DNA from: Haliotis cracherodii
Lineage: Eukaryota
NCBI RefSeq assembly: GCF_022045235.1
Contig: NW_027266308.1
Coordinates: 63,240,001 to 63,304,000 of the forward strand
DNA length: 64,000 nt
Reading direction: 5' to 3'
A model generated the notes under the pieces. That model had not been told where the DNA came from. It saw only the letters and a list, made by a program, of their open reading frames with translations, and did no database searches. The stretch's first letter is position 1. Each line of letters begins with the position of its first letter. This document shows, one piece after another, positions 2,912 to 37,900 of the stretch. The translations under genes were made by a program, and so were the position numbers.

Positions 2912-3082
2912 GGGGCGGTTGGGTAGCCTAGTGGTTAAAGCGTTCGCTCGTCACGCCGAAGACCCGGGTTCGATTCCCGACATGGGTACAATGTGTGTAG
3001 CCCATTTCTGGTGTCCCCGCCGTGATATTGCTGGAATATTGCTAAAAGCGGCGTTAAACCATACTCACTCACTCACTCACTC
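2912..3082 (+). mobile_element. tRNA(Asp)-like-headed SINE, family A
   Basis: TAGCCTAGTGG A box, GTC anticodon-like loop, GGTTCGATTCCC B box, tail gctggaatattgctaaaagcggcgttaaac+(ACTC)n. Confidence 0.9.
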
Positions 3083-4983: not shown

Positions 4984-6082
4984 CATCGACCTGACCACTC
5001 TTCGCCTCTTTTGACAAGCATAGGTTGCTGGGGACCTATTCTAACCCGGACTCTCCATGGGTGTATTGCGTTTGTTGAAAACACAGATTCCTTAAGTCCC
5101 TGACACTGCTTTGCTTCTACCTCAGGGACTAATGGTTTGTTAAAAATATTAACATCGCATTTAGCAATGCATCTTAATCGCGGCGGGGAAGTACTAACGA
5201 TGTGAGGATCAAAACACAGGTCTTCATTGTCACAAACGAACACTTTACCCACAAGGCCACTCCAGTGCTAAGTACGGCGTTAAACAACAAACAAACAAAC
5301 AAACAACGCACGATCTCATCCACACTTGGACAATGTCAAGACACTATATACAAATCTTCGATTGAAATAAAACCAAGCCAACAGCAGAAAATGAAAGATA
5401 ATGTCGTATTTACAGATGTGAAGCGAAAACGACAACAATTTATCCACACTGCATCTCATGACGTCACGCTACCCCGTAAGCATATTAAACCCTTTATGCT
5501 TTGATAATAGCGCAAGTTGACAAACGCCGCAATTTATAGACGAAAGTCATCCGTTTATGAGAGGCGATTAGTGCCATACAATAGCAGGCTGAGACATCGT
5601 TTGTGAGGAGAGCGGGCTACCGAGGTGTGACAGTGTGCCTTGTCCATTACCTGATCTCCAAATCACGCCATGATCTTGTGTCTAGCCAAAATAAATACTA
5701 GAAATGTGTGACTCATTAAATACCCCGTCGAATGATGTATAACACATATACTGTTTCTTTAAAGGGAAAAGTTAGGTTGGAAAAATGAAAACTTGATATA
5801 CGCGTTTTCTCGCAAAATTAATTGGTTTGAATAAATGGAGGTCTGAATTTCAAGTTGTTGCTATTTTGTGGGTATTGAGTAACGAACGCTGTGGTTTGAA
5901 AAAAAGCCTGGGGTAGAGTGTATGTTTATAACGAGGCCGTCAGCAGCCTTCACAAACACTGCACCCAATCAAAGCCAACATTGCCCCCAACCGAAGAGAC
6001 AATATCCATTGAAAATCATTTGCCGTGCATGTTTTTGGCCCGGGTCTGATCTTCAGAGATACAGAACATACATATGCTAATA

Positions 6083-8224: not shown

Positions 8225-8994
8225 TTACAGACCGCCGTCATATAGCTGGAATATTGCTGAATGCGGCGTTAAACAACCAACCCACCAACTTCCTCCATTA
8301 ACGCCGGGGTCTTAATAACACAACACCAACAGATACAAAAAGTGTTCAATTTATGAGCAGGAATTTAAAGCTCCACCAGGAATTGTTATATTGAACAGTT
8401 CACGTCTGGTTCGGGAAAGCGCTCATCTCCGAGGGCTGGGTATCTGATAAAGACATAATGCCAGTCAACGAGTTATTCTGAAGAAAATAAGAACATGATC
8501 GATTGCTCGTAAGAGAGTAATCCATCGCCCGCAAGAAAATTTACATAAATCAGAAATATTGTGATAAATTATGGTATTTCAATAATAATGCGTGCGTTTC
8601 CAAGCTGAATTTGCTGATAGTAAATATCTTTGGAACTTTTTTAAAAATTCAGCCTTACTCATAGTTATTTCAGAGATAGCTTTTAGACAAGCCAGTTCGT
8701 ATCGTGTCTTTTTTAAATCAATCGACTGAATATTCTAGTGGGTTTTATTAGAAATTTAGGAAAACATCTCGGCATTGCAGAAGGGTGGGGAAAAGATACT
8801 CTAAGGGAAATAACCCTTCCAAACTTTTGGAAGTGCATCGTCGGAAGAGTTATTGTCCTTTAAGACTCGTTGAAGATTTTACGAATGAATCTTTTTGTGA
8901 GCGCTGGCTCAAAGTGTTTGTTCGTTGTCAGAAGAAAACAACGACTTAAGCCGTCCAGCACTAACCACGGTAGCTGTCTCTTTGTGTATGGAAT

Positions 8995-9245
8995 TCGTGA
9001 AGATCCGGGGTAGAATTGGTCTTGGGCAACCCATGCTTGCCGTAAAAGATAGAGCTTGTCGTAAGAGGCGACTAACGGGATCGGGTGGTCAGGCTCGCTG
9101 ACTTGGTTGATGCATGTCATCGATCCCAATTGCGTGGATCGTTGCTCATGATGTCATTCACTGTATTGTTTGGTCCAGATTCGATTATTTACAGACAGCC
9201 GTCATATAGTTGGAATATTGCTGAGTTAAATAACAAACGAACCAA
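8995..9245 (+). mobile_element. Family C copy
   Basis: Homologous to 1332-1577. Confidence 0.85.
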
Positions 9246-9798: not shown

Positions 9799-10053
9799 GA
9801 CCCGTGAAGATCCGGGTTAGAATAGGTCTTCAGCAACCCATGCTTGTAAGAGACGAGTATACTTGTGGTAAGAGGCGACTAACGGGATCGGGTGGTCAGG
9901 CTCACTGACTTGGTTGATGCATGCCATCGTATCCCAATTGCGTGGATCGATGAACATGACATCAATCACTGGTTTGTCTGGTCCAGACTCGATTATTTAC
10001 AGACCACCGTATTATAGCTGGAATATTGCTGAGTGCGGTGTTAAACAACAAAC
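9799..10053 (+). mobile_element. Family C copy (best-preserved head)
   Basis: gacccgtgaagatccgggttagaataggtcttcagcaacccatgctt... Confidence 0.88.
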
Positions 10054-11375
10054 AGTTTTCAAGTACATACATCATTCTGATAAAAACGATATTGAAATGC
10101 CCATTCTCTTATTATTATTTGTTATACAGACTATCAACAAAATAATCGGTGGCTGAAATAGACAGATTTGACAATATTGTTCGCCGGGAGGCGGGATTAA
10201 AAAATAAAACAAATAAAATGTTTTTTTATGTCTTCCTTTCCGCCTATAATTGAAGACGGAAACAAATCCTCTGAATATTTTAACCCCATCCACATTTGTG
10301 TAATGTCACATCGGCGCACCCTTAGACAAACTAATTTGAACGCCTTAATCAATGTCAGAAATGTGTTGGCTATTGAAATTAGTCCGCCATCATGATCATT
10401 CCTCACCCTAAGAAGTAACCTTTCCCTACATCGAATGACGGATTCAAATGCACCAAACTACCTATTCTTCCCGCCACGCTGTGATCCCAAATGAGGCTAA
10501 TTTGGCACATGACAAATTTGGATCTTGGGCCCCGACAACGAAACCGTACTTGCCCTGGGTAACCAATTCCATCATTGATTAAAACTGCATATCAACACCT
10601 GCGAGTTGTCTGCCCTTGGCTTCTAAATCCGACACCAGGTGCCCACGTGTCGACATTTTGGCATGAACTCGTTCCTTTCCTTAGACTATGCAATGATTTA
10701 TTGCGCTTCCTCCTCTCAGAACGTTTTTGGCAACAGTTTAAAGAGGGGATGAAAGAAACGGAAATTTTCTGACGGAGCCGTTTGTCTTAGGCAGACATGT
10801 AGTTGGAGAAGATCCTTCAAACTTCAATTTTAACGGATCGAGTCAGAAATATAACACAAGATCATACATCGTTCTAAAACAAAACAGATTTTTTTTTAAG
10901 ATAACACAAAAACTCACCTTAAATGCAACAAGATCTATACGTCATGTGTTTAGGTGTATTTTATTGGTGGATATCGTGTTATCTTGCCATTTTCAGAACT
11001 ACTGTCAAACAGCAACGCAAAGTGGTGTCAGTTGAAAACGTATCACAATATGTATGCTGGAGCCTCGATTATCCAGTGTGTAATACTACATAATAACATA
11101 ATGGATTTAACACACTGGGAAATCGAGGCTGATGAAGGAGTATCTGCTTTTGCATACATTTAACATAGTGAGTGAGTTAATTGTTTAAGCCAGTCTACTA
11201 TTCCAAAACGACTTACAATTAGAATGTCTTTACTTTGTTAGATAGAAACTGGATGTGTTGGTTTGTTTAACGCGCTGCAATTCGACTGCGGCCTGTAAGT
11301 AATCGAGTGTGAAACAGAAATACCAATGACTGATACCCGGAGTTACGATCTACCCCGTCGGGGTACATGACAAAC

Positions 11376-11633
11376 GAAGATCCGGTTTGGAATAGGTTTT
11401 CAACAACCCATGCTTGCCGTAACAGACGACTTTGCTTGTCGTAAGAGGGGACTTATACGGGATCGGGTGGTCAAGCTAGCTGACGTGGTTGATACATGTG
11501 ATCGTATCCCATGGATCGATGCTCATGCCATTGTGTCAGTTACTGGATTGTCTGGTCCAGACTCAATTATTTACAGACCGCCGTCATATAGCTGGGATAC
11601 TGCCGAGTGCGGCGTAAACAAACAAACAAAACG
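11376..11633 (+). mobile_element. Family C copy, followed by an inverted C fragment (~11635-11700)
   Basis: Homologous to the other C copies. Confidence 0.8.
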
Positions 11634-14994: not shown

Positions 14995-17900
14995 TCATGA
15001 GGCATCCCCAGCACCGCTGGAATCGGACATCTCCTGCAAGAAGCGGTTACACTTCCCGATGAGGACCTTGATGGACTCCACCACCAGGGCATCCGGGGGC
15101 AACACACCAGTGCTTTCTACACAAACTGCAAACACACAAACCAAACCCTACTGAACCACCAAATATAAAGAGTGGCATACACATCTAAAACTGTTTTTTA
15201 TCATTTTCATAATGGCTAATCATCATCCAGGAAGAAGAAAGGCAGGGATGCTGCAGCTAAATGTGGTGTGAAAATGTCGAAACATCTGATGTATTGACTT
15301 ACAAATGAAGTGATCTCTGACTTTGCTGAGCTGGACATTGTCCTTGAGGTGATCATGTCTGAAGACCTCACGGCTGCCGGTGTCACGACGAGCATGTGCT
15401 ACACGAGCCTTCTTCCTACCTGTGAAAACAAGAATATCTAATGCCAGCAAATCTCAGGTAACACATTAATTCCGAAGTGCAAACGGAACAGCACATCCAA
15501 GATGTCTCCCATTTTGGACCCTGTGTGTTTCAAAATATATCTAATTTTCTTTAGCGTGTAAGTTTTGTTTGTTTGTTGTTTAACGCCGCACTCAGCAATA
15601 TTCCAGCTATATGACGGCGGTCTGTAAATAATCGAGGTGGACCAACAATCCAGTGATTGACATCATGAGCATCAATCCATGCAATAAGGACCGATGACAT
15701 GCATCAACGAAGTCAGTGAGCTTGACCCCACAATCCCATTAGTCGCCTCTTATGACAAGCATTGTGCCTGTTACGACATGCATGGGTTGCTGAAGACTTA
15801 TTCTAACCCGGATATTCACAGGTGTAGTGTGTAAGTAAATGAGTATAATGCCAGTTTGAACCTAGTGGGGATTCTGGGATATAATTGGTCCCTAGCAATC
15901 TATGCTCAAGGTAAGAGGCAACTAAATGAAATAGGAGGTCAGACTCTGTGACTTTGCCGATTGTGTATCCCAACAGTGTGGATTAAGCTCATGATGCCTT
16001 ACACTAGATTGTCTGGTATCATTATTTTCAGGACACCATCAAGTTGTTTGTATACTGCCTAATACTGCATTGAACAACAAACAAACATATGCCCAATTGA
16101 ACAACTGTTCTGTTCTGTTGGCTTAGAATGGAGTGAGTGGGTGAGTGAGAATGTCCTTACACCGCTTTTAGCAATATTCCAACAATATCACGCCCGGGGA
16201 CACCAGAAATGTGGCTTACACATAATACACATTTTGGGAATCAAACCCTGGTCTTTGGTGTGATGAGCAAACACTTTAACTACTGGGCTAGCACTTCTGT
16301 AGCCCCCAGCAGGTGTGACCTACCATGGACATTGTCCACCTCAATGACCCCAGGGGAGAAGCACTTCTGTAGCCCCTAAATGTGACCTACCATGGACATT
16401 GTCCACCTCAATGACCCCCGGGGAGAAGCACTTCTGTAGCCCCCCAGCAAGTGTGACCTACCATGGACATTGTCCACCTCAATGACCCCCGGGCAGAAGC
16501 ACTTCTGTAGTCCCCCTAGCAAATGTGACCTACCATGGACATTGTCCACCTCAATGACCCCCGGGGAGAAGCACTTCTGTAGCCCCTAAATGTGACCTAC
16601 CACGGACATTATCCACCTCAATGACCCCCGGGGAGAAGCACTTCTGTAGCCCCCCAGCAAGTGTGACCTACCATGGACCATTGTCCACCTCAATGACCCC
16701 TGGGGAGAAGCACTTCTGTAGCCCCTAAATGTGACCTACCATGGACATTATCCACCTCAATAACCCCCGGGGAGAGGCACTTCTGTAGCCCCCCAGCAAG
16801 TGTGACCTACCATGGACATTGTCCACCTCAATGACCCCCGGGGAGAAGCACTTCTGTAGCTCTTCAGCAGAATCACCCTCAACAGGATGAGTCAGTCGGA
16901 TCTCTGGCAGGAGGCGGTACGAGGCTGTGGCTGAAGATAAAGAATGTCTTGAAGTGAATTCTGTGAATCCATGTGACAGTCCTTATGGGGACTCAGGGAA
17001 GGTCAGAATAGCTTCCAGCAACCTACGCTGGTTGTAAGAGACAACTTAATGATGATGTGTCATCATACCTCAATGTCATTGGGCATTGCTTAAAACATCA
17101 ATTACTAGTTTGTCTAGTTCGGCATTATTTACAGGTTGCAATCATATAAACTGGAACATTGCTGAGTGAGGCGTTAACCAACAAACAAACAGCATGAAAT
17201 TTTTACAACACAATTTGATAGTTATAATTCCCGACAATGCTATACGGTATACATCGTGGCCATCACATTTTCATTTGGAATACAAGAAGCTGAATAATAC
17301 TCCTTCAAAGTCTGTGAATGGACATGATTACAGGTGTGGTATCATCTACTAACCCACAGGTGAGAACTTGGCATGGTCCTTCCCAATACCCTTCACACAG
17401 TGTAACTTGAGGTCCAGCTCCTGTAAACATCAACACACAGTTACACATTGTCTTGAGGACAATCGCACCTAAACGCTTCTCATCACAACAGAACACAAAG
17501 TGAGTGAGTGAGTTTGATCTTACACCGCTTTTAGCAATATTCCCGCAATATCACAGCGAGGGACACCAGAAATGGGCTTCACACATTGTACCCATGTCGG
17601 GAATCGAACCCGAGTCTTTGGCATGACATGGACGCTTTAACCACTAGGCTACCCGACTGCCCCAGAAGACAAAGAGTGACTGACCCCTGCTGTCTGAGTG
17701 TGTGAGTGAGAGCTACAATTTAATGTCACATCAGCATTCTTTCAGCATATAGCTGTTTGAGACGATGTAAGGAAAGGAGGAACAATGTCAGGCCCGGATC
17801 CTGTTCCACAAAGTGATTGAAGAGTTATGACGTAGTCTCTGTTAAAGTATTGGTGTACGATCGTCTTAGCCCTTCAATCGCTTAGTGGAACAAAGTAATC

Positions 17901-20900: not shown

Positions 20901-23180
20901 GCACAGTCTGCACTACACTAGCACTAACACTTGGTACAGCTTTCAACAATAAAGAAACTAAATCTCAAAAAAACACATTTCTTCAAATACATTTATCTTT
21001 CCCCTATGCCTTACCTTCCTGTCGGTATTCGAACAGCCTTGGATCTGCCTGGATGGGGATGAGGCCAAGTCTGTGTGCTAGCACCTCATCTTGGATGATG
21101 GAGGTGTTGTTATACACAAACACCTTCTCTATTGCCATAGTAGGTACCTAGAAAGACAAATATGAAAGGTCTAGAGTCAAAGTCTCCGCACAATATTACT
21201 TGACCCACAAATATTGCCAGTTCATAGAAGAAATGCAACAAATTGAATTTAAGAAGTTGACAATAAAGATGGAGCTAAAAGTACGGTGACCTATTGGGGC
21301 CATTTAACCAACTGCAATAGTACTGCATTACCCCAAAACACTTTTGAGATAAGGATGCAAAAATGGTACAGCTTTTGCAATAGTATTGCGACCCGTAAAG
21401 ATCCGGGTTAAAATTGATCTTCAGCAACTCATGCTGGTCAAGAGAGGCAACTAAGGGGAATCAAGTGGTCAGGCTCGCTGACTTGGTTGATGCATGTCAT
21501 TGTATTCCAGTTGCGTAGATCGATGTTCGTGATGTTAATCACCGGACTGTCTGGCCCAGGCTTGATTATTTAAAGACCACCGTCATATAGTATGAATATT
21601 GCTGACAGCAGCTTTAAAAAACACACAAAAAAAACCAATCAAACATACAATAGTTCTGCGATAGCCTGATAAGCATTCACCATCCAACAACATCGACTTC
21701 CTGTCATTATTCCACCTGATGAAAAAGTCTAAAATATATGTCCAATGTTACATTCAGCAGATTGCTTGGGACATTGTTATGGAATAAGAGGGGTACCTCT
21801 GATCTTTAATGTCTGATATATAATTATGAATTTTTCTGTATTGATGGAACCCATGTGTCTCTTCAAGCATGGTGTATTTGGGATCTGAACATTTTTGTAA
21901 GTGTAGAGTAGCATTATGGAAACTATAAAGAATTCAACTTGTCATTAATCACTGTTAATGTATTGTATTGACCATGAACATTGGTAGTTTGATCAATTGT
22001 CACACAACTTAGTGACTAGCGACGTTATTGTTTGCTTCACAACTTCAACCACTTTCACAACAATACTATACCTCAGCAAGCAAAATTCTTCGGAAGGCAT
22101 TTGCAATGGCAGCATCGATACCAACCATATCAAACTCCAAAACATCCCCTTCCAATTTCACAACATCAATCCGGAATTTCTGTTAACAGATAATATGTTG
22201 ATAACCAGATGACAAGATACTCAGGAGTACTTTATGTAAATGGAAAAGGTAAGGGTATCTTACTGAATGCACAGAATTAATCCACAAATATCCAGTTTAA
22301 ACTTCTCTAAACTATCCTGTACTTTACAGCTAGTATCACTGACAATAAGACTAAAGAACAATTAAAAAGTCAAACAACTTTGTATGTTGAAGGATTTTTA
22401 AGGGACTTAACTGGTTTCATGCTATGTATATTTTTAAATTACCTTTTTAAACTTGCTGTGGCTCCACGTATCATCATAACCTGAATAGTTCCCAGGGAAG
22501 TCAGTGCTGTGTACCTAAAATCAAGAACACAAAAACCTAGATGTTATATCCTCGGACTGACCTGCTCACAATCACAGGCTACACATCAACGTCATGTCCA
22601 GGCCATACAATCTAAACAGGAGTTTGGCCATTGTGGTATCATAAACTGTATAATTGTCAATGTACACGAGAAGCAGGATTTTACCCGACACAGAAATGTG
22701 TGTCCAGAACGCATAAACATATTGAATGGACATAGAATATGATATATGTTGTCCTAAGGGACCCACAATAATATCCACTGTACCAAATGCTTCTAAAGAA
22801 ATATAGAGTTGATGTAATTAAAGTAAGTATTTAATGTTACAGCAATACACTACAGCATTTATTTCCATTACATACATGAACCCCATGTTGCGGGACGAAT
22901 ATGTGCACTCTCAATGATAATATAGAGTTCAGTGATACTTTAACCATCTGACTGCCATAGTACCTCTGCCACATTCAGCGTACAACATGGTACCAGGTCA
23001 AAAAGTGTCTGAAGCGTCAGTTAAATCAACGGTTGTATTCCCTATGCCAAAGACCAAAAACGACACTGACTTCATAAGCAGAATATGTGGGAAGAAAATT
23101 AAAGCAATAATGTAAATTACATTGTCAACACCATGTTCGTTCAACTGAACACGTGTTCGCAATTCATCGATCCTGTCCAT
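14995..23180 (-). CDS. POLR1C: DNA-directed RNA polymerases I and III subunit RPAC1 (AC40), 11 coding exons, 346 aa
   Basis: Exons (minus): 23180-23121, 22514-22443, 22179-22072, 21147-21015, 20077-19961, 18816-18767, 18661-18596, 17420-17354, 16930-16811, 15419-15303, 15125-14995 (TGA). All introns are GT-AG with compatible phases; total 1041 nt. Translation [35 protein letters not shown]...[55 protein letters not shown]...[45 protein letters not shown]...[24 protein letters not shown] matches the AC40 family motifs. Confidence 0.97.
15563..15824 (-). mobile_element. Family C copy (older plus-strand copy follows at ~15865-16086)
   Basis: Reverse-complement match. Confidence 0.85.
16130..16290 (-). 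mobile_element. SINE family A copy, 5' end lost at the exon-derived tandem array
   Basis: Matches family A up to ...tactgggcta, then abuts the array directly. Confidence 0.85.
16291..16860 (-). repeat. Tandem array (8 copies, 67-72 bp) of the POLR1C exon 9 3' end plus its 5' splice site
   Basis: tgtgacctacc recurs at 16314, 16381, 16452, 16524, 16591, 16662, 16730 and 16801; the last copy is the genuine exon 9 donor. Confidence 0.95.
17500..17663 (-). mobile_element. SINE family A copy
   Basis: Full length; TSD-like agaacacaaag / agaagacaaag. Confidence 0.88.
18829..19093 (-). mobile_element. SINE family B copy abutting the POLR1C exon 6 acceptor
   Basis: Full-length copy; its tail ends ~12 nt upstream of the exon. 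Confidence 0.9.
21390..21640 (+). mobile_element. Family C copy (single third hairpin variant)
   Basis: Homologous; lacks the internal hairpin duplication. Confidence 0.85.
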
Positions 23181-34900: not shown

Positions 34901-37900
34901 ATGATTACAAACTCAGCTCATACTGATTCTGATGCCAGTGTTGTACCCACCTTGCCATCTTCTTCTTGCTGCTGCTTGGACTGAACAGGTTGAGCTTCTT
35001 GCGCGGAGTCTTTATGTTGTGAGATGGAGTGGCTGTAAATGGCATATGTTGCTTGTCCCCAAAGCTCAGACTAGGAGTATCCAAAACGCCACCTCTCCTA
35101 GGATCTGAAATAAACAAAACATCCTTAGACGTGGAAACCAGGGATAGACCCCATGGGCATAATTGGGGCTGGGTTTTTTTTTCATCAATGGGATTTTGGT
35201 AGAAAACAATCTAGTCTGAGTTTCACAAGTCTTGGACTGACGAACGAGTGGCCTTGTATAACCTTGGGAACATGGCCTGGTCAAGTAACAACATAGGTAA
35301 TGCTAATAGATACTCCTTGCAGTTGTCTCCCTTTATGTGGTCTGTTCACTGCTTGCCCCAGTATCTTCACACTGTGTGATTGAGTGAGAGAGTATGGTTT
35401 TACGCCGCTTTTAGCAATATTCCAGCAATATCACGGCGGGGGACACCAGAAATGGGCTTCACACATTGTACCCATGTCGGGAATCGAACCCGGGTCTTCG
35501 GCGTGACGAACGAACGCTTTAACCACTAGGCTACCCGACCGCCCCTATCTTCACACTGACCTATCGCACTACCTCCATTACATGGATAGACACGGCCATG
35601 AGACTAGTTGTTTTCTTCCAAAATCTAGCTATTTTACACAAACCTCTAGTCCAAAATGAACCACAAACTAGTTGGGATTTGACCACTGGTGGCTACCTCT
35701 GCATTATTTCTCTATTTCTTAAAGGAGTAGTGATATTATAGATTGTTATCATATTTAATGAACACAATTGCTTCATGTTTGGTACCAAGAAATCTGGTAC
35801 ATACATTTAGCATTGCAAGCACGGCAGCCACCAGAACCGGTAACACACAGGTGTTCAACCATATGGAAGCTACATGTAATATCATGTAGTTAAAAGGAGT
35901 ATAATGTGAATAACTCTAAGAACAGCCAACATGTGTGCATCTATTTTCTGCATACAAATAAACAAAACTGTTCCAAAACAGGATATGGATATTTCATGCA
36001 GATGTGAATACCATTTATATCCATCTTCCTGATGGCTGAGGCAGGGGTGAAGGGGGTGTGTCCCAGTGCTGACCCCTGGGGGAGGTGTTGCAGAATGGCC
36101 TTTCTGGAGGGGGAAAACAACACAATGATGCAATCAGAAACAGAAGTGGGAACAAGTAGATTCACAAACAAAGAATATTAACAAAAATGAGTAATTCGGG
36201 ATAAATACAATGTTTTTATACTTACCTGATGCTACACCTTTAGCACTGTGTAGCTTCAGGTAAGGTACAACTGGTATTATTGTACTTTGAATAAAACATT
36301 TAATAGAAAACAGCATTTCTTGTTAACATTTACAATAGTAATACATAGATCTTGATAAAGTTGGAGGAATATTCCATGATCATGATGATAACATAACATC
36401 CATACTTCTAACCTGTCTAATCATCCTTATAAAAACATTCATGTCATATATCTTACTTTTTAGATGCTGAAAAGGGAATGACCTCGCCAGAGGCTTTGCG
36501 TTTTCGTATGACGACAGGTGTGGTTGTTGGGTAGTGGGTTTGTTCAAGGGATCCGGAGAGAGACTGGGCACTTTCATTTGAGGCAGTGGTCATATTCTGA
36601 CTTGAGTTTCCATTCTTGCCATCTGTACTTCTCCGTAACTTTGCCAGGCCATTTGCTATAGAGCTGACAATACCTACAACACACAATGCATTACAGTTGG
36701 GTTCAGTTCACCTTGTTTAGGACACAAAGAGGTGTTCAAATCAATTGAAATAAGTGAAGATTAATTGGAAGGTTTAAAATAGGGCTCAGATGGGTAACTC
36801 GGGTCGGTACTGAGTAGGACCCAGGTACCCACATGACAACCCGGCTTGGGGTTAGTCACATGCTTTATTGTTTAATGAGCACAATACACTACTATAACTC
36901 CATGGTTACCAACAAGTTGCTAATGTTTGGATATCTTTCTGACAATTTGCACATGCATTCTGTCTTTTATATGTTTTGAGTAAAGATACGGCTTCAGTCA
37001 ACTTCAGTGTATGCATGACCAGATCAGTTTTCTATGTGTCTGAATACTTTTTGTCAGGGGTCCGGTAAAACAATTCCAAATTCGTGTAGGATCTGGTATT
37101 AGGGAGTCGGGTAGTAAATTTGGACTCGTCCCCGCCCTGGTTTAAACGACCAAACAAATGCAATTTTCCACAATCAAACAACTGATTTGCCCCTCGGAAG
37201 TTCTGAGTTTCACTACTTACTATTTAGTATGTGAAGAAATAAAAGTGAGAAAGAGCGAGGCCAGTGTCTTTTTTAAATGCTTTTGTTTGTTTGTTGTTTA
37301 ACACCTCACTCAGCAATATTCCAGCTTTATGACGGTGGTCTGTAAATAATGGAGTCTGGACCAGACAATCCTGTGGTTGGCATGAGCATCGACCTATGCA
37401 TTTGGGACACAACAAAATGCATCAACCAAGTCAGTGAACCTGACTACCCAATCCTGTTAAGTCGCCTCAGTCTTATGACATGCATACTCTCCTCTTATGA
37501 CAAGCATGGGTTGCTAAGACCAATTTTACACAGATCTCCACAGGTCTTTTTGAAAACTAAAGTTCTGAAGTCAGTATTAGTGTTTATTTGGTGTGATCTA
37601 GTTTTACTGAACTTAACACTGAAACTCAGGAAAGTGACTCTAACCAATTAATCTTGAAGCTTGATCGGGATGATCCATTCATCAAACATGACTGAACAAT
37701 CAATTCCCAAGACTAATGACAGACGTTGTATGATGTAAGGAACATGCATCATGATATTTGTACATGTTGTAAAGCTAATCTGATTTTTATGCTGGCAAGG
37801 CATTAACCAGGACTCTGAACATTTTAGAACTCCTCTCACCACTAAAACATCCTTACACATTGTTACATGCACTCTGAGATTAAATCTTGGTCTCCATTTG

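Follow-up and report, generated by a model that had tools for sequence, protein, structure and literature searches.

A predicted tandem-pseudoknot head of Haliotis retroelements recurs in viruses and a phage and may act as an exonuclease roadblock

Introduction

What does the 5′ head of a tRNA-less short retroelement do, and how does such an element come to begin where it does? The question is posed by an element at position 9,799 of a 64,000-nt stretch of the Haliotis cracherodii genome (GCF_022045235.1, NW_027266308.1, positions 63,240,001–63,304,000, forward strand; the whole stretch is hereinafter designated the window, and its own numbering is used throughout). A first-pass annotation, made from the letters alone, proposed that the head folds into a compact multi-way junction with a kissing-loop pseudoknot and is a candidate ribozyme or other structured RNA.

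As a sequence the domain is not new. Matetovici et al. (2016; PMC4758252) described LP-SINEs in gastropods and bivalves, which carry a ~70-bp LINE-derived head (LP, ‘LINE promoter’) common to the 5′ ends of Nimb-17_LMi, I-3_DR and RTE-9_CPB. They proposed that the head is a promoter and, in section 10 of that paper, drew an analogy with the dual promoter/ribozyme of L1Tc; their section on LP names no partner LINE, gives no fold and does not mention viruses. The head at 9,799 is this LP head, and the novelty that the first pass had hoped for at the level of the domain is thereby lost. In the literature searched, the motif string is absent from the main texts, and we found no description of the tandem fold or of the viral occurrence (some queries may miss primed spellings of 3′ UTR or CITE), nor of the phage occurrence or of a LINE that combines a ribozyme with the motif; the 26 HRIMA motifs of PMC10085705 could bear on novelty.

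Results

An LP-SINE with a sharp 5′ end

The element at 9,799–10,055 (+ strand) is a whole, decayed copy of a ~257-nt non-tRNA SINE of the LP-SINE type, at which no TSD was found. The family's first base, a G at 9,799, lies one base 5′ of stem S1 (see below), and the 3′ tail at 10,010–10,055 shares homology with that of an I-group LINE of the genome before it runs into (CAAA)n. A search of the 1.18-Gb own genome returned 3217 SINE candidates, the best 30 of which were taken as full-length; these 30 are 89–100% identical and share the starting G and (CAAA)n 3′ ends. When copies were chosen regardless of their 5′ end (n = 26), 14 started at position 1 and 4 one base later. In the 40 of 60 own-genome copies whose head was anchored, the first two positions hold A in 40 and G in 35, with random bases upstream, which amounts to a sharp 5′ end and bears out the earlier remark that several copies share roughly the same start. 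TSDs were found in 13 of the best 30 copies, abutting G1 in 9 and leaving one extra base in 4. The head contains no tRNA, no B-box match and no Pol III boxes, again as the first pass had stated.

The family thus shows the features of an LP-SINE, namely a ~70-nt head shared with a LINE, no tRNA or Pol III boxes, TSDs and a (CAAA)n tail. From the parts of PMC4758252 that describe Hdi_LP and Hmi_LP, these too have a ~70-nt tRNA-less head, TSDs and a tandem-repeat tail, and Hmi_LP measures 255 bp, compared with 257–260 in the 9,799 family; head, length and layout together suggest that the 9,799 family is Hdi_LP/Hmi_LP. The invariant hairpin motif described below also occurs in the scallop copies of the supplement of that paper.

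Within the window, the head's 15-mer occurs 9 times at ≤3 mismatches, against 0.4 expected. Further head copies lie at 1,329–1,428 (+, 58 bits), 8,990–9,086 (+, 49.6 bits), 15,728–15,826 (–, 49.9 bits) and 37,447–37,548 (–, 27.1 bits), together with a variant at 4,990–5,065 (–, 41 bits), a 5′-truncated copy at 11,376–11,431 (+, 27.6 bits), a diverged copy with a compensated S2 at 15,858–15,936 (+, 37.7 bits) and another diverged copy at 16,978–17,059 (+, 33.3 bits). The copy at 21,388–21,465 (+, 41.4 bits) lacks a degenerate tandem duplicate of the P3-3′/hairpin segment that the 9,799 copy carries at 9,845–9,864 (+). This duplicate, left out of the first-pass fold, is a subfamily feature: it is present in 30/30 of the best copies and absent from many others, and single-hairpin heads are common, with 299 pattern matches in the genome and most of those listed being single. 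Eight own-genome variant heads traced over 8 kb showed no LINE-sized ORF. The window also holds a tRNA-headed SINE family with a similar 3′ tail (856–927, –; 2,923–2,981, +, with its tail at 3,017–3,059) and, at ~16,290–16,880, a tandem array with units of ~55–60 nt.

Covariation favours two tandem pseudoknots

The fold first proposed consisted of a closing stem (9,801–9,805/9,882–9,886), hairpins at 9,806–9,812/9,825–9,831 and 9,832–9,835/9,841–9,844, and a last hairpin (9,865–9,879) followed by TAA (9,880–9,882), with loop 1 (gggt) kissing loop 2 (accc). All these letters and coordinates are correct, and the variant first helices cited near 21,398 and 15,867 are present. Covariation nevertheless favours two tandem H-type pseudoknots, in which the C-runs and G-runs have swapped partners, over a kissing-loop four-way junction.

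In pseudoknot 1 of this model, the 5′ strand of S1 (9,800–9,804; all features on the + strand) is predicted to pair with 9,813–9,817, a pairing that rests on the family swap described below (p = 1e-4) and on pair counts (85% paired). A one-base loop, L1 (U, 9,805), follows; it is U in 4 of 5 well-parsed held-out families under a parser with no bonus for U. The 5′ strand of S2 (9,806–9,812), which is the first hairpin of the earlier fold, pairs with 9,825–9,831 and has changed on both sides in 4 of 6 pairs. Loop L3 (9,818–9,824) ends in a conserved AGAAU and tolerates long 5′ insertions in other families. Pseudoknot 2 comprises 9,832–9,844, where stem P3 (9,832–9,835/9,841–9,844) encloses a loop (9,836–9,840) predicted to pair with the G-run at 9,884–9,886, and the UAA junction plus 3′ strand at 9,880–9,886. 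Between these lies the invariant hairpin D (9,865–9,879), of 4 bp and a 7-nt loop, with one mismatch in the 9,799 copy. Its loop has U first and A fifth, by which pattern (as given in the sections of PMC12397905 consulted) it would be a T-loop.

A metagenome scan for the motif yielded at least 122 matches in at least 120 loci. Once 30 own-genome and 6 viral copies had been added, 153 copies had full context and fell into 23 clusters. A family swap was run on the 15 families (80 copies) in which S2 and P3 are intact, leaving out 73 copies and 8 clusters. In this test pairing partners are swapped between families, which asks whether a pairing is family-specific; because the families are related, its p-values are optimistic. 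The pairing of the 5′ run with the start of loop 1 (p = 1e-4) and that of loop 2 with the 3′ run (p < 1e-4) are family-specific, whereas across the 15 families neither the closing stem (p = 0.29) nor the kiss (p = 0.08) is. Pair counts on a MAFFT alignment of 16 sequences agree for the hairpins first proposed, with S2 91.6% paired, P3 90.6% and the invariant hairpin D 100%, but not for the closing stem (48.8%), whose pair 9,804:9,883 is broken in 14 of 16; S1 is 85.3% paired in 17 sequences. Taken together, covariation supports the five predicted helices of the head. The claim of a structured RNA therefore survives, with conservation and compensatory changes, and its junction and kissing topology does not.

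The earlier fold might still be a real alternative conformation of an RNA switch, whose C- and G-runs would pair in one way or the other. The tandem model outscored it in 13 of 15 families, in 11 of 15 in a register-free version with one copy per family (p = 0.028 and 0.014) and in 5 of 7 loci fetched later (two of the seven mis-parsed), leaving 2, 4 and 2 cases in which the earlier fold scored higher. One locus, L386, has, by eye, a 9-bp closing helix, and the MFE structure of the 9,799 copy forms the closing stem; that copy by itself folds no better than shuffles (z –0.95) under this method, which does not model pseudoknots. Against a switch, the closing stem and the kiss are not family-specific, and two clusters (L244 and L214, 20 copies) that have lost pseudoknot 1 retain AGAAU and pseudoknot 2, keeping the loop:3′ pairing with a compensated pair (score ≥9 in 18 of 20 copies). 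We consider such a switch remote. Elsewhere, a metagenome repeat (L199:1365–1518) carries two diverged motif copies in tandem.

An I-group LINE carries the motif behind an HDV-like ribozyme

With a LINE ORF1 from a metagenome assembly as query, we obtained 20 own-genome loci chosen by protein alone, 18 of which carry the motif upstream of ORF1 in the sense orientation. These 18 start 57 nt before the motif with an HDV-like ribozyme that has all canonical parts: a 7-bp P1 with G1·U, P2, P3, L3, a GG P1.1 and the C of J4/2. The 57 nt match Rfam RF02682 at E = 0.0027, below gathering, and from their sequence we regard them as a canonical HDV-like ribozyme that is putatively self-cleaving. ORF2 of the LINE encodes an endonuclease (APE), RT and RNase H. 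TSDs abut the ribozyme G1 in 4 of 5 full elements, and of 185 motif copies searched with a ribozyme descriptor, 15 have the unit upstream, all 15 in this LINE.

All 18 loci chosen by ORF1 retain the upstream ribozyme sequence. Among 30 further copies chosen by the motif alone, the ribozyme is included in 30/30, from G1 in 28, and none starts at the motif (0/30, upper bound 9.5%), which makes it unlikely that the motif is the ribozyme that cleaves the 5′ end. The motif is nonetheless 93% identical across LINE subfamilies, compared with 48% at ORF1 third positions (16 copies). Within it (47 of 50 loci in register, 38 distinct), 2 of 48 stem sites are variable, against 8 of 23 sites elsewhere (p = 0.0013). 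In the HDV-headed LINE, then, the motif appears neither to cleave nor to set the 5′ end, yet it is kept under selection.

The LINE and SINE tails match over 30–55 nt; for the SINE copy L005 the match was reached by 0/300 shuffles for each of 5 LINEs, and for the tail of the 9,799 copy it was equalled by 0–5 of 300. This shared tail makes the I-group LINE family or a relative of it the probable SINE partner, and the SINE is likely copied by this LINE, with which it shares head and tail. The LINE is young (L388:762–818; full elements L408–L413), and one pattern of its head has 495 exact matches. I/Nimb is not among the six clades for which the part of PMC5786205 consulted lists ribozymes.

Two further features were seen in these elements. 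About 100 nt after the motif (L388 element positions ~131–230) are also conserved (89%) and are shared with a LINE of another assembly (L386), possibly as a further structured domain. The LINE copy at L395:2736–2810 (–) has many A-to-G changes in both its ribozyme and its motif, which suggests that the RNA was edited before it was inserted.

The motif in RNA viruses, a DNA virus and a phage

Eight scans of viral contigs gave at least 10 contigs with the full motif, the remaining matches being chance; loose scans returned mostly chance matches. Seven small RNA-virus-like contigs, two of them near-identical, carry the motif, in every case in sense, after the last ORF and 27–119 nt from the contig end; it begins 5–100 nt past the last stop codon. 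In four distinct contigs the Pfam domains just upstream of the motif are RdRP_3, RdRP_4, Peptidase_A21 and nodavirus capsid. Contigs L036 and L451 have no Pfam match; each carries two tandem motif copies whose paired stems differ. Another copy is intergenic in a 212-kb DNA-virus contig.

A covariance model built from retroelement copies only scored the RNA-virus-like contigs at 40–69 bits, against ≤16 for chance loci of the same search. Contigs L044 and L170, which a four-helix score did not separate from chance (≤12 and 16, the latter tied with the best chance match), were set apart by the covariance model at 47 and 62 bits, as was L451 at 42.5 bits.

Two contigs with terminase, portal, head and tail-sheath genes share one phage copy; this is one sequence, and the phage claim accordingly rests on a single lineage. 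Its stems differ and all helices are present, with a four-helix score of 20/21 against 16 for the best chance match (122 sites scored). By the covariance model it reaches 25.5 bits and two chance loci with an exact 18-mer reach 25.1, so that the phage call depends on the four-helix score. Among annotated phages and plasmids, BLAST returned no match to the motif. Seven matches in ‘prokaryote genomes’ look like contamination by eukaryotic repeats and were not counted as bacterial; the corresponding loci, L381–L387, are eukaryotic repeats in prokaryote assemblies, likely from a host, and L386 has a LINE gag-like ORF1. The phage motif lies in a hairpin-rich intergenic region of ~450 nt (L450:600–1060; G001, G002), where the Shine-Dalgarno sequence of the next gene sits inside a hairpin.

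Comparison with known RNA classes

No Rfam family corresponds to the motif in the window (gathering threshold), in five viral loci (E ≤ 1) or at the phage locus L450, where no family reached its gathering score and no ribozyme family was found. Models of twister, twister sister, pistol, hatchet and hairpin ribozymes likewise gave no match in the window, the five viral loci or the phage locus, and mapping the head by eye onto HDV, twister, pistol and hairpin topologies failed. The hammerhead core CUGANGA is absent from the head and its 100-nt flanks in both copies examined. The earlier statement that the fold suits no known ribozyme topology thus holds.

The nearest likeness among ribozymes is to the HDV-like ribozymes of non-LTR retrotransposons, which are also 5′-terminal and whose P4-J4/2-P2 resembles the succession of hairpin, C-U-A-A and 3′ pairing strand in the head. 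HDV-like ribozymes have nested pseudoknots, an L3 motif with a consensus of the UYCNCGY type, and P1.1; the head has tandem pseudoknots, without the nested double pseudoknot, P3/L3 and P1.1, and with no L3 match.

Exonuclease-resistant RNAs offer another parallel. In class 3 plant-virus xrRNAs, a pseudoknot and a conserved T-loop halt Xrn1 at the base of P1, according to the portion of PMC12397905 consulted, and xrRNAs occur in 3′ UTRs and intergenic regions, where the first P1 base can match an RNA 5′ end (PMC6299227, likewise in part). The head resembles class 3 in its compact pseudoknot, T-loop-type loop, 3′ UTR and intergenic sites, and a first stem whose base coincides with the RNA 5′ end. 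Class 3, as described there, places the T-loop within an apical loop and closes its ring by one 9-bp pseudoknot to the 3′ end; the head instead has its T-loop-like hairpin in the second of two tandem H-type pseudoknots, and it occurs in retroelements and a phage, unlike class 3. Its topology differs from all three xrRNA classes.

Unrelated RNA viruses and invertebrate genomes also share another short, highly conserved RNA element, s2m (bioRxiv 10.1101/2020.06.29.177030); its fold differs, and the head is tied to retroelement 5′ ends and occurs in DNA viruses as well. Likeness or complementarity of the head to host rRNA did not exceed shuffles (36 and 130 of 200). We therefore place the head in no ribozyme or xrRNA class that we compared, and its action may be xrRNA-like.

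Discussion

We tentatively favour, with somewhat less than even confidence, an interpretation of the head as a non-catalytic 5′→3′ exonuclease roadblock, akin to xrRNAs, that sets the 5′ ends of the elements. Exonucleases would trim read-through transcripts back to the base of S1, which would become the element's 5′ end, and hairpin D would dock on the conserved AGAAU and brace the 5′ strand in the 3D fold that we envisage. In the viruses such a block may yield 3′ non-coding RNAs, and in the DNA virus and the phage it may set or protect the 5′ ends of downstream mRNAs. It is possible, short of probable, that one device, a double pseudoknot plus T-loop hairpin, serves retrotransposons and SINEs as well as animal-type RNA viruses, a large DNA virus and a bacteriophage, in each case fixing and protecting the 5′ ends of RNAs non-catalytically.

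The base of S1 marks the start of two unrelated families: in the own-genome SINE G1 lies one base before S1, and in 53 metagenome copies conservation starts at the first base of S1, the sequence being random two bases earlier. The spacing between the 5′ end and the conserved core differs by tens of bases, as expected if the structure, and not a promoter, sets the end, and the phage copy favours a mechanism without a factor confined to eukaryotes. A roadblock would cover the starts at the S1 base, the viral 3′ UTR sites (sometimes doubled), the DNA-virus sites upstream of genes, and the phage. Counted against it are the short viral 3′ RNAs that it predicts (~100–190 nt); moreover, ordinary H-type frameshift pseudoknots do not stall Xrn1, according to the part of PMC10321173 consulted. 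Judged by insertion ends, the 5′ ends of two SINE-like families fall at the first-stem base and that of the HDV-headed LINE does not, and a roadblock alone does not explain selection behind the LINE ribozyme. A pure exonuclease block benefits only trimmed RNAs, which lose the ribozyme; a second function on the intact RNA is therefore implied, unless 5′ modules are swapped by recombination.

A rival explanation is recruitment of the translation machinery (ribosome or initiation factor), in the manner of a 3′ CITE or small IRES, which would serve the LINE RNA that the HDV-like ribozyme leaves uncapped and, from the 3′ UTR, viral RNAs, and would let SINEs dock on ribosomes making the LINE protein. 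In its favour, selection persists behind the ribozyme, where the motif would act while internal; 12, 15 and 19 ATGs precede the inferred ORF1 start in the 3/3 LINEs in which a start was found, LINE RNAs that begin with a ribozyme probably depend on IRES-like initiation (PMC6765202), the viral copies lie just past the last stop codon, and the invariant hairpin suggests a binding site. We find it rather unlikely, since it leaves the sharp 5′ ends of the ribozyme-less families unexplained, the gene ~185 nt downstream of the phage copy has a Shine-Dalgarno sequence of its own, and the head has no significant likeness or complementarity to host rRNA; a dual role, roadblock plus translation, is possible. 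The motif might instead be bound by a protein that the element itself encodes (ORF1p/ORF2p, or a viral polymerase), which would help full-length copies to be completed. This would suit a motif that is retained while internal and adjoins the ribozyme, and R2 protein binds a 5′ pseudoknot (PMC6765202). It is very unlikely, given that the motif is common to unrelated polymerases: I-group and RTE RTs (from the LP section of PMC4758252), several RdRps and DNA viruses.

The sharp 5′ ends would also follow from a new class of self-cleaving ribozyme that cuts at its own 5′ edge and is inactive or redundant in the HDV-headed LINE. The spread, size, pseudoknots and invariant loops of the motif resemble those of small ribozymes, and its junction bases are fixed in the first six viral copies and variable among HDV-LINE subfamilies, which could mean lost catalysis. 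Yet the phage copy varies at these bases too, the would-be cleavage site has no conserved base across families or viruses, none of the 30 LINE copies is cut at the motif and all 18 chosen by ORF1 keep the upstream ribozyme, and cutting in a 3′ UTR would presumably strip the 3′ end of linear RNA-virus genomes. Such a ribozyme is distinctly unlikely; the LINE starts and viral 3′ UTRs speak against the self-cleavage first suggested, and the wider wording that came with it, a different 5′-processing or recruitment RNA, stands. Hardly credible is an internal promoter acting at the DNA level only, as the published LP hypothesis has it. The terminal position, the L1Tc dual promoter/ribozyme precedent (section 10 of PMC4758252) and the invariant, non-covarying hairpin, which could be a DNA site, fit a promoter; five covarying helices, RNA-virus contigs, variable spacing and the lack of any LINE copy starting at the motif do not. 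A promoter role may exist in addition to an RNA role.

For the exonuclease roadblock, the most informative system is the LINE that carries the motif in series behind an HDV-like ribozyme, which separates cleavage from the motif's own job and allows the latter to be tested directly; this LINE may also be the partner that went unfound in PMC4758252. A 75-nt motif that has no Rfam family and is conserved across mollusc repeats, RNA viruses and a phage must touch something very general in RNA metabolism. If the roadblock interpretation is right, the head would be the first exonuclease-resistant RNA in cellular retroelements to replace a promoter or ribozyme, with a second role on the intact RNA, and it would provide a third route to exact retroelement 5′ ends besides promoters and ribozymes. 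The SINE/LINE head that has stood as an unexplained ‘promoter’ since 2016 would thereby gain a structure and a testable RNA-level mechanism.
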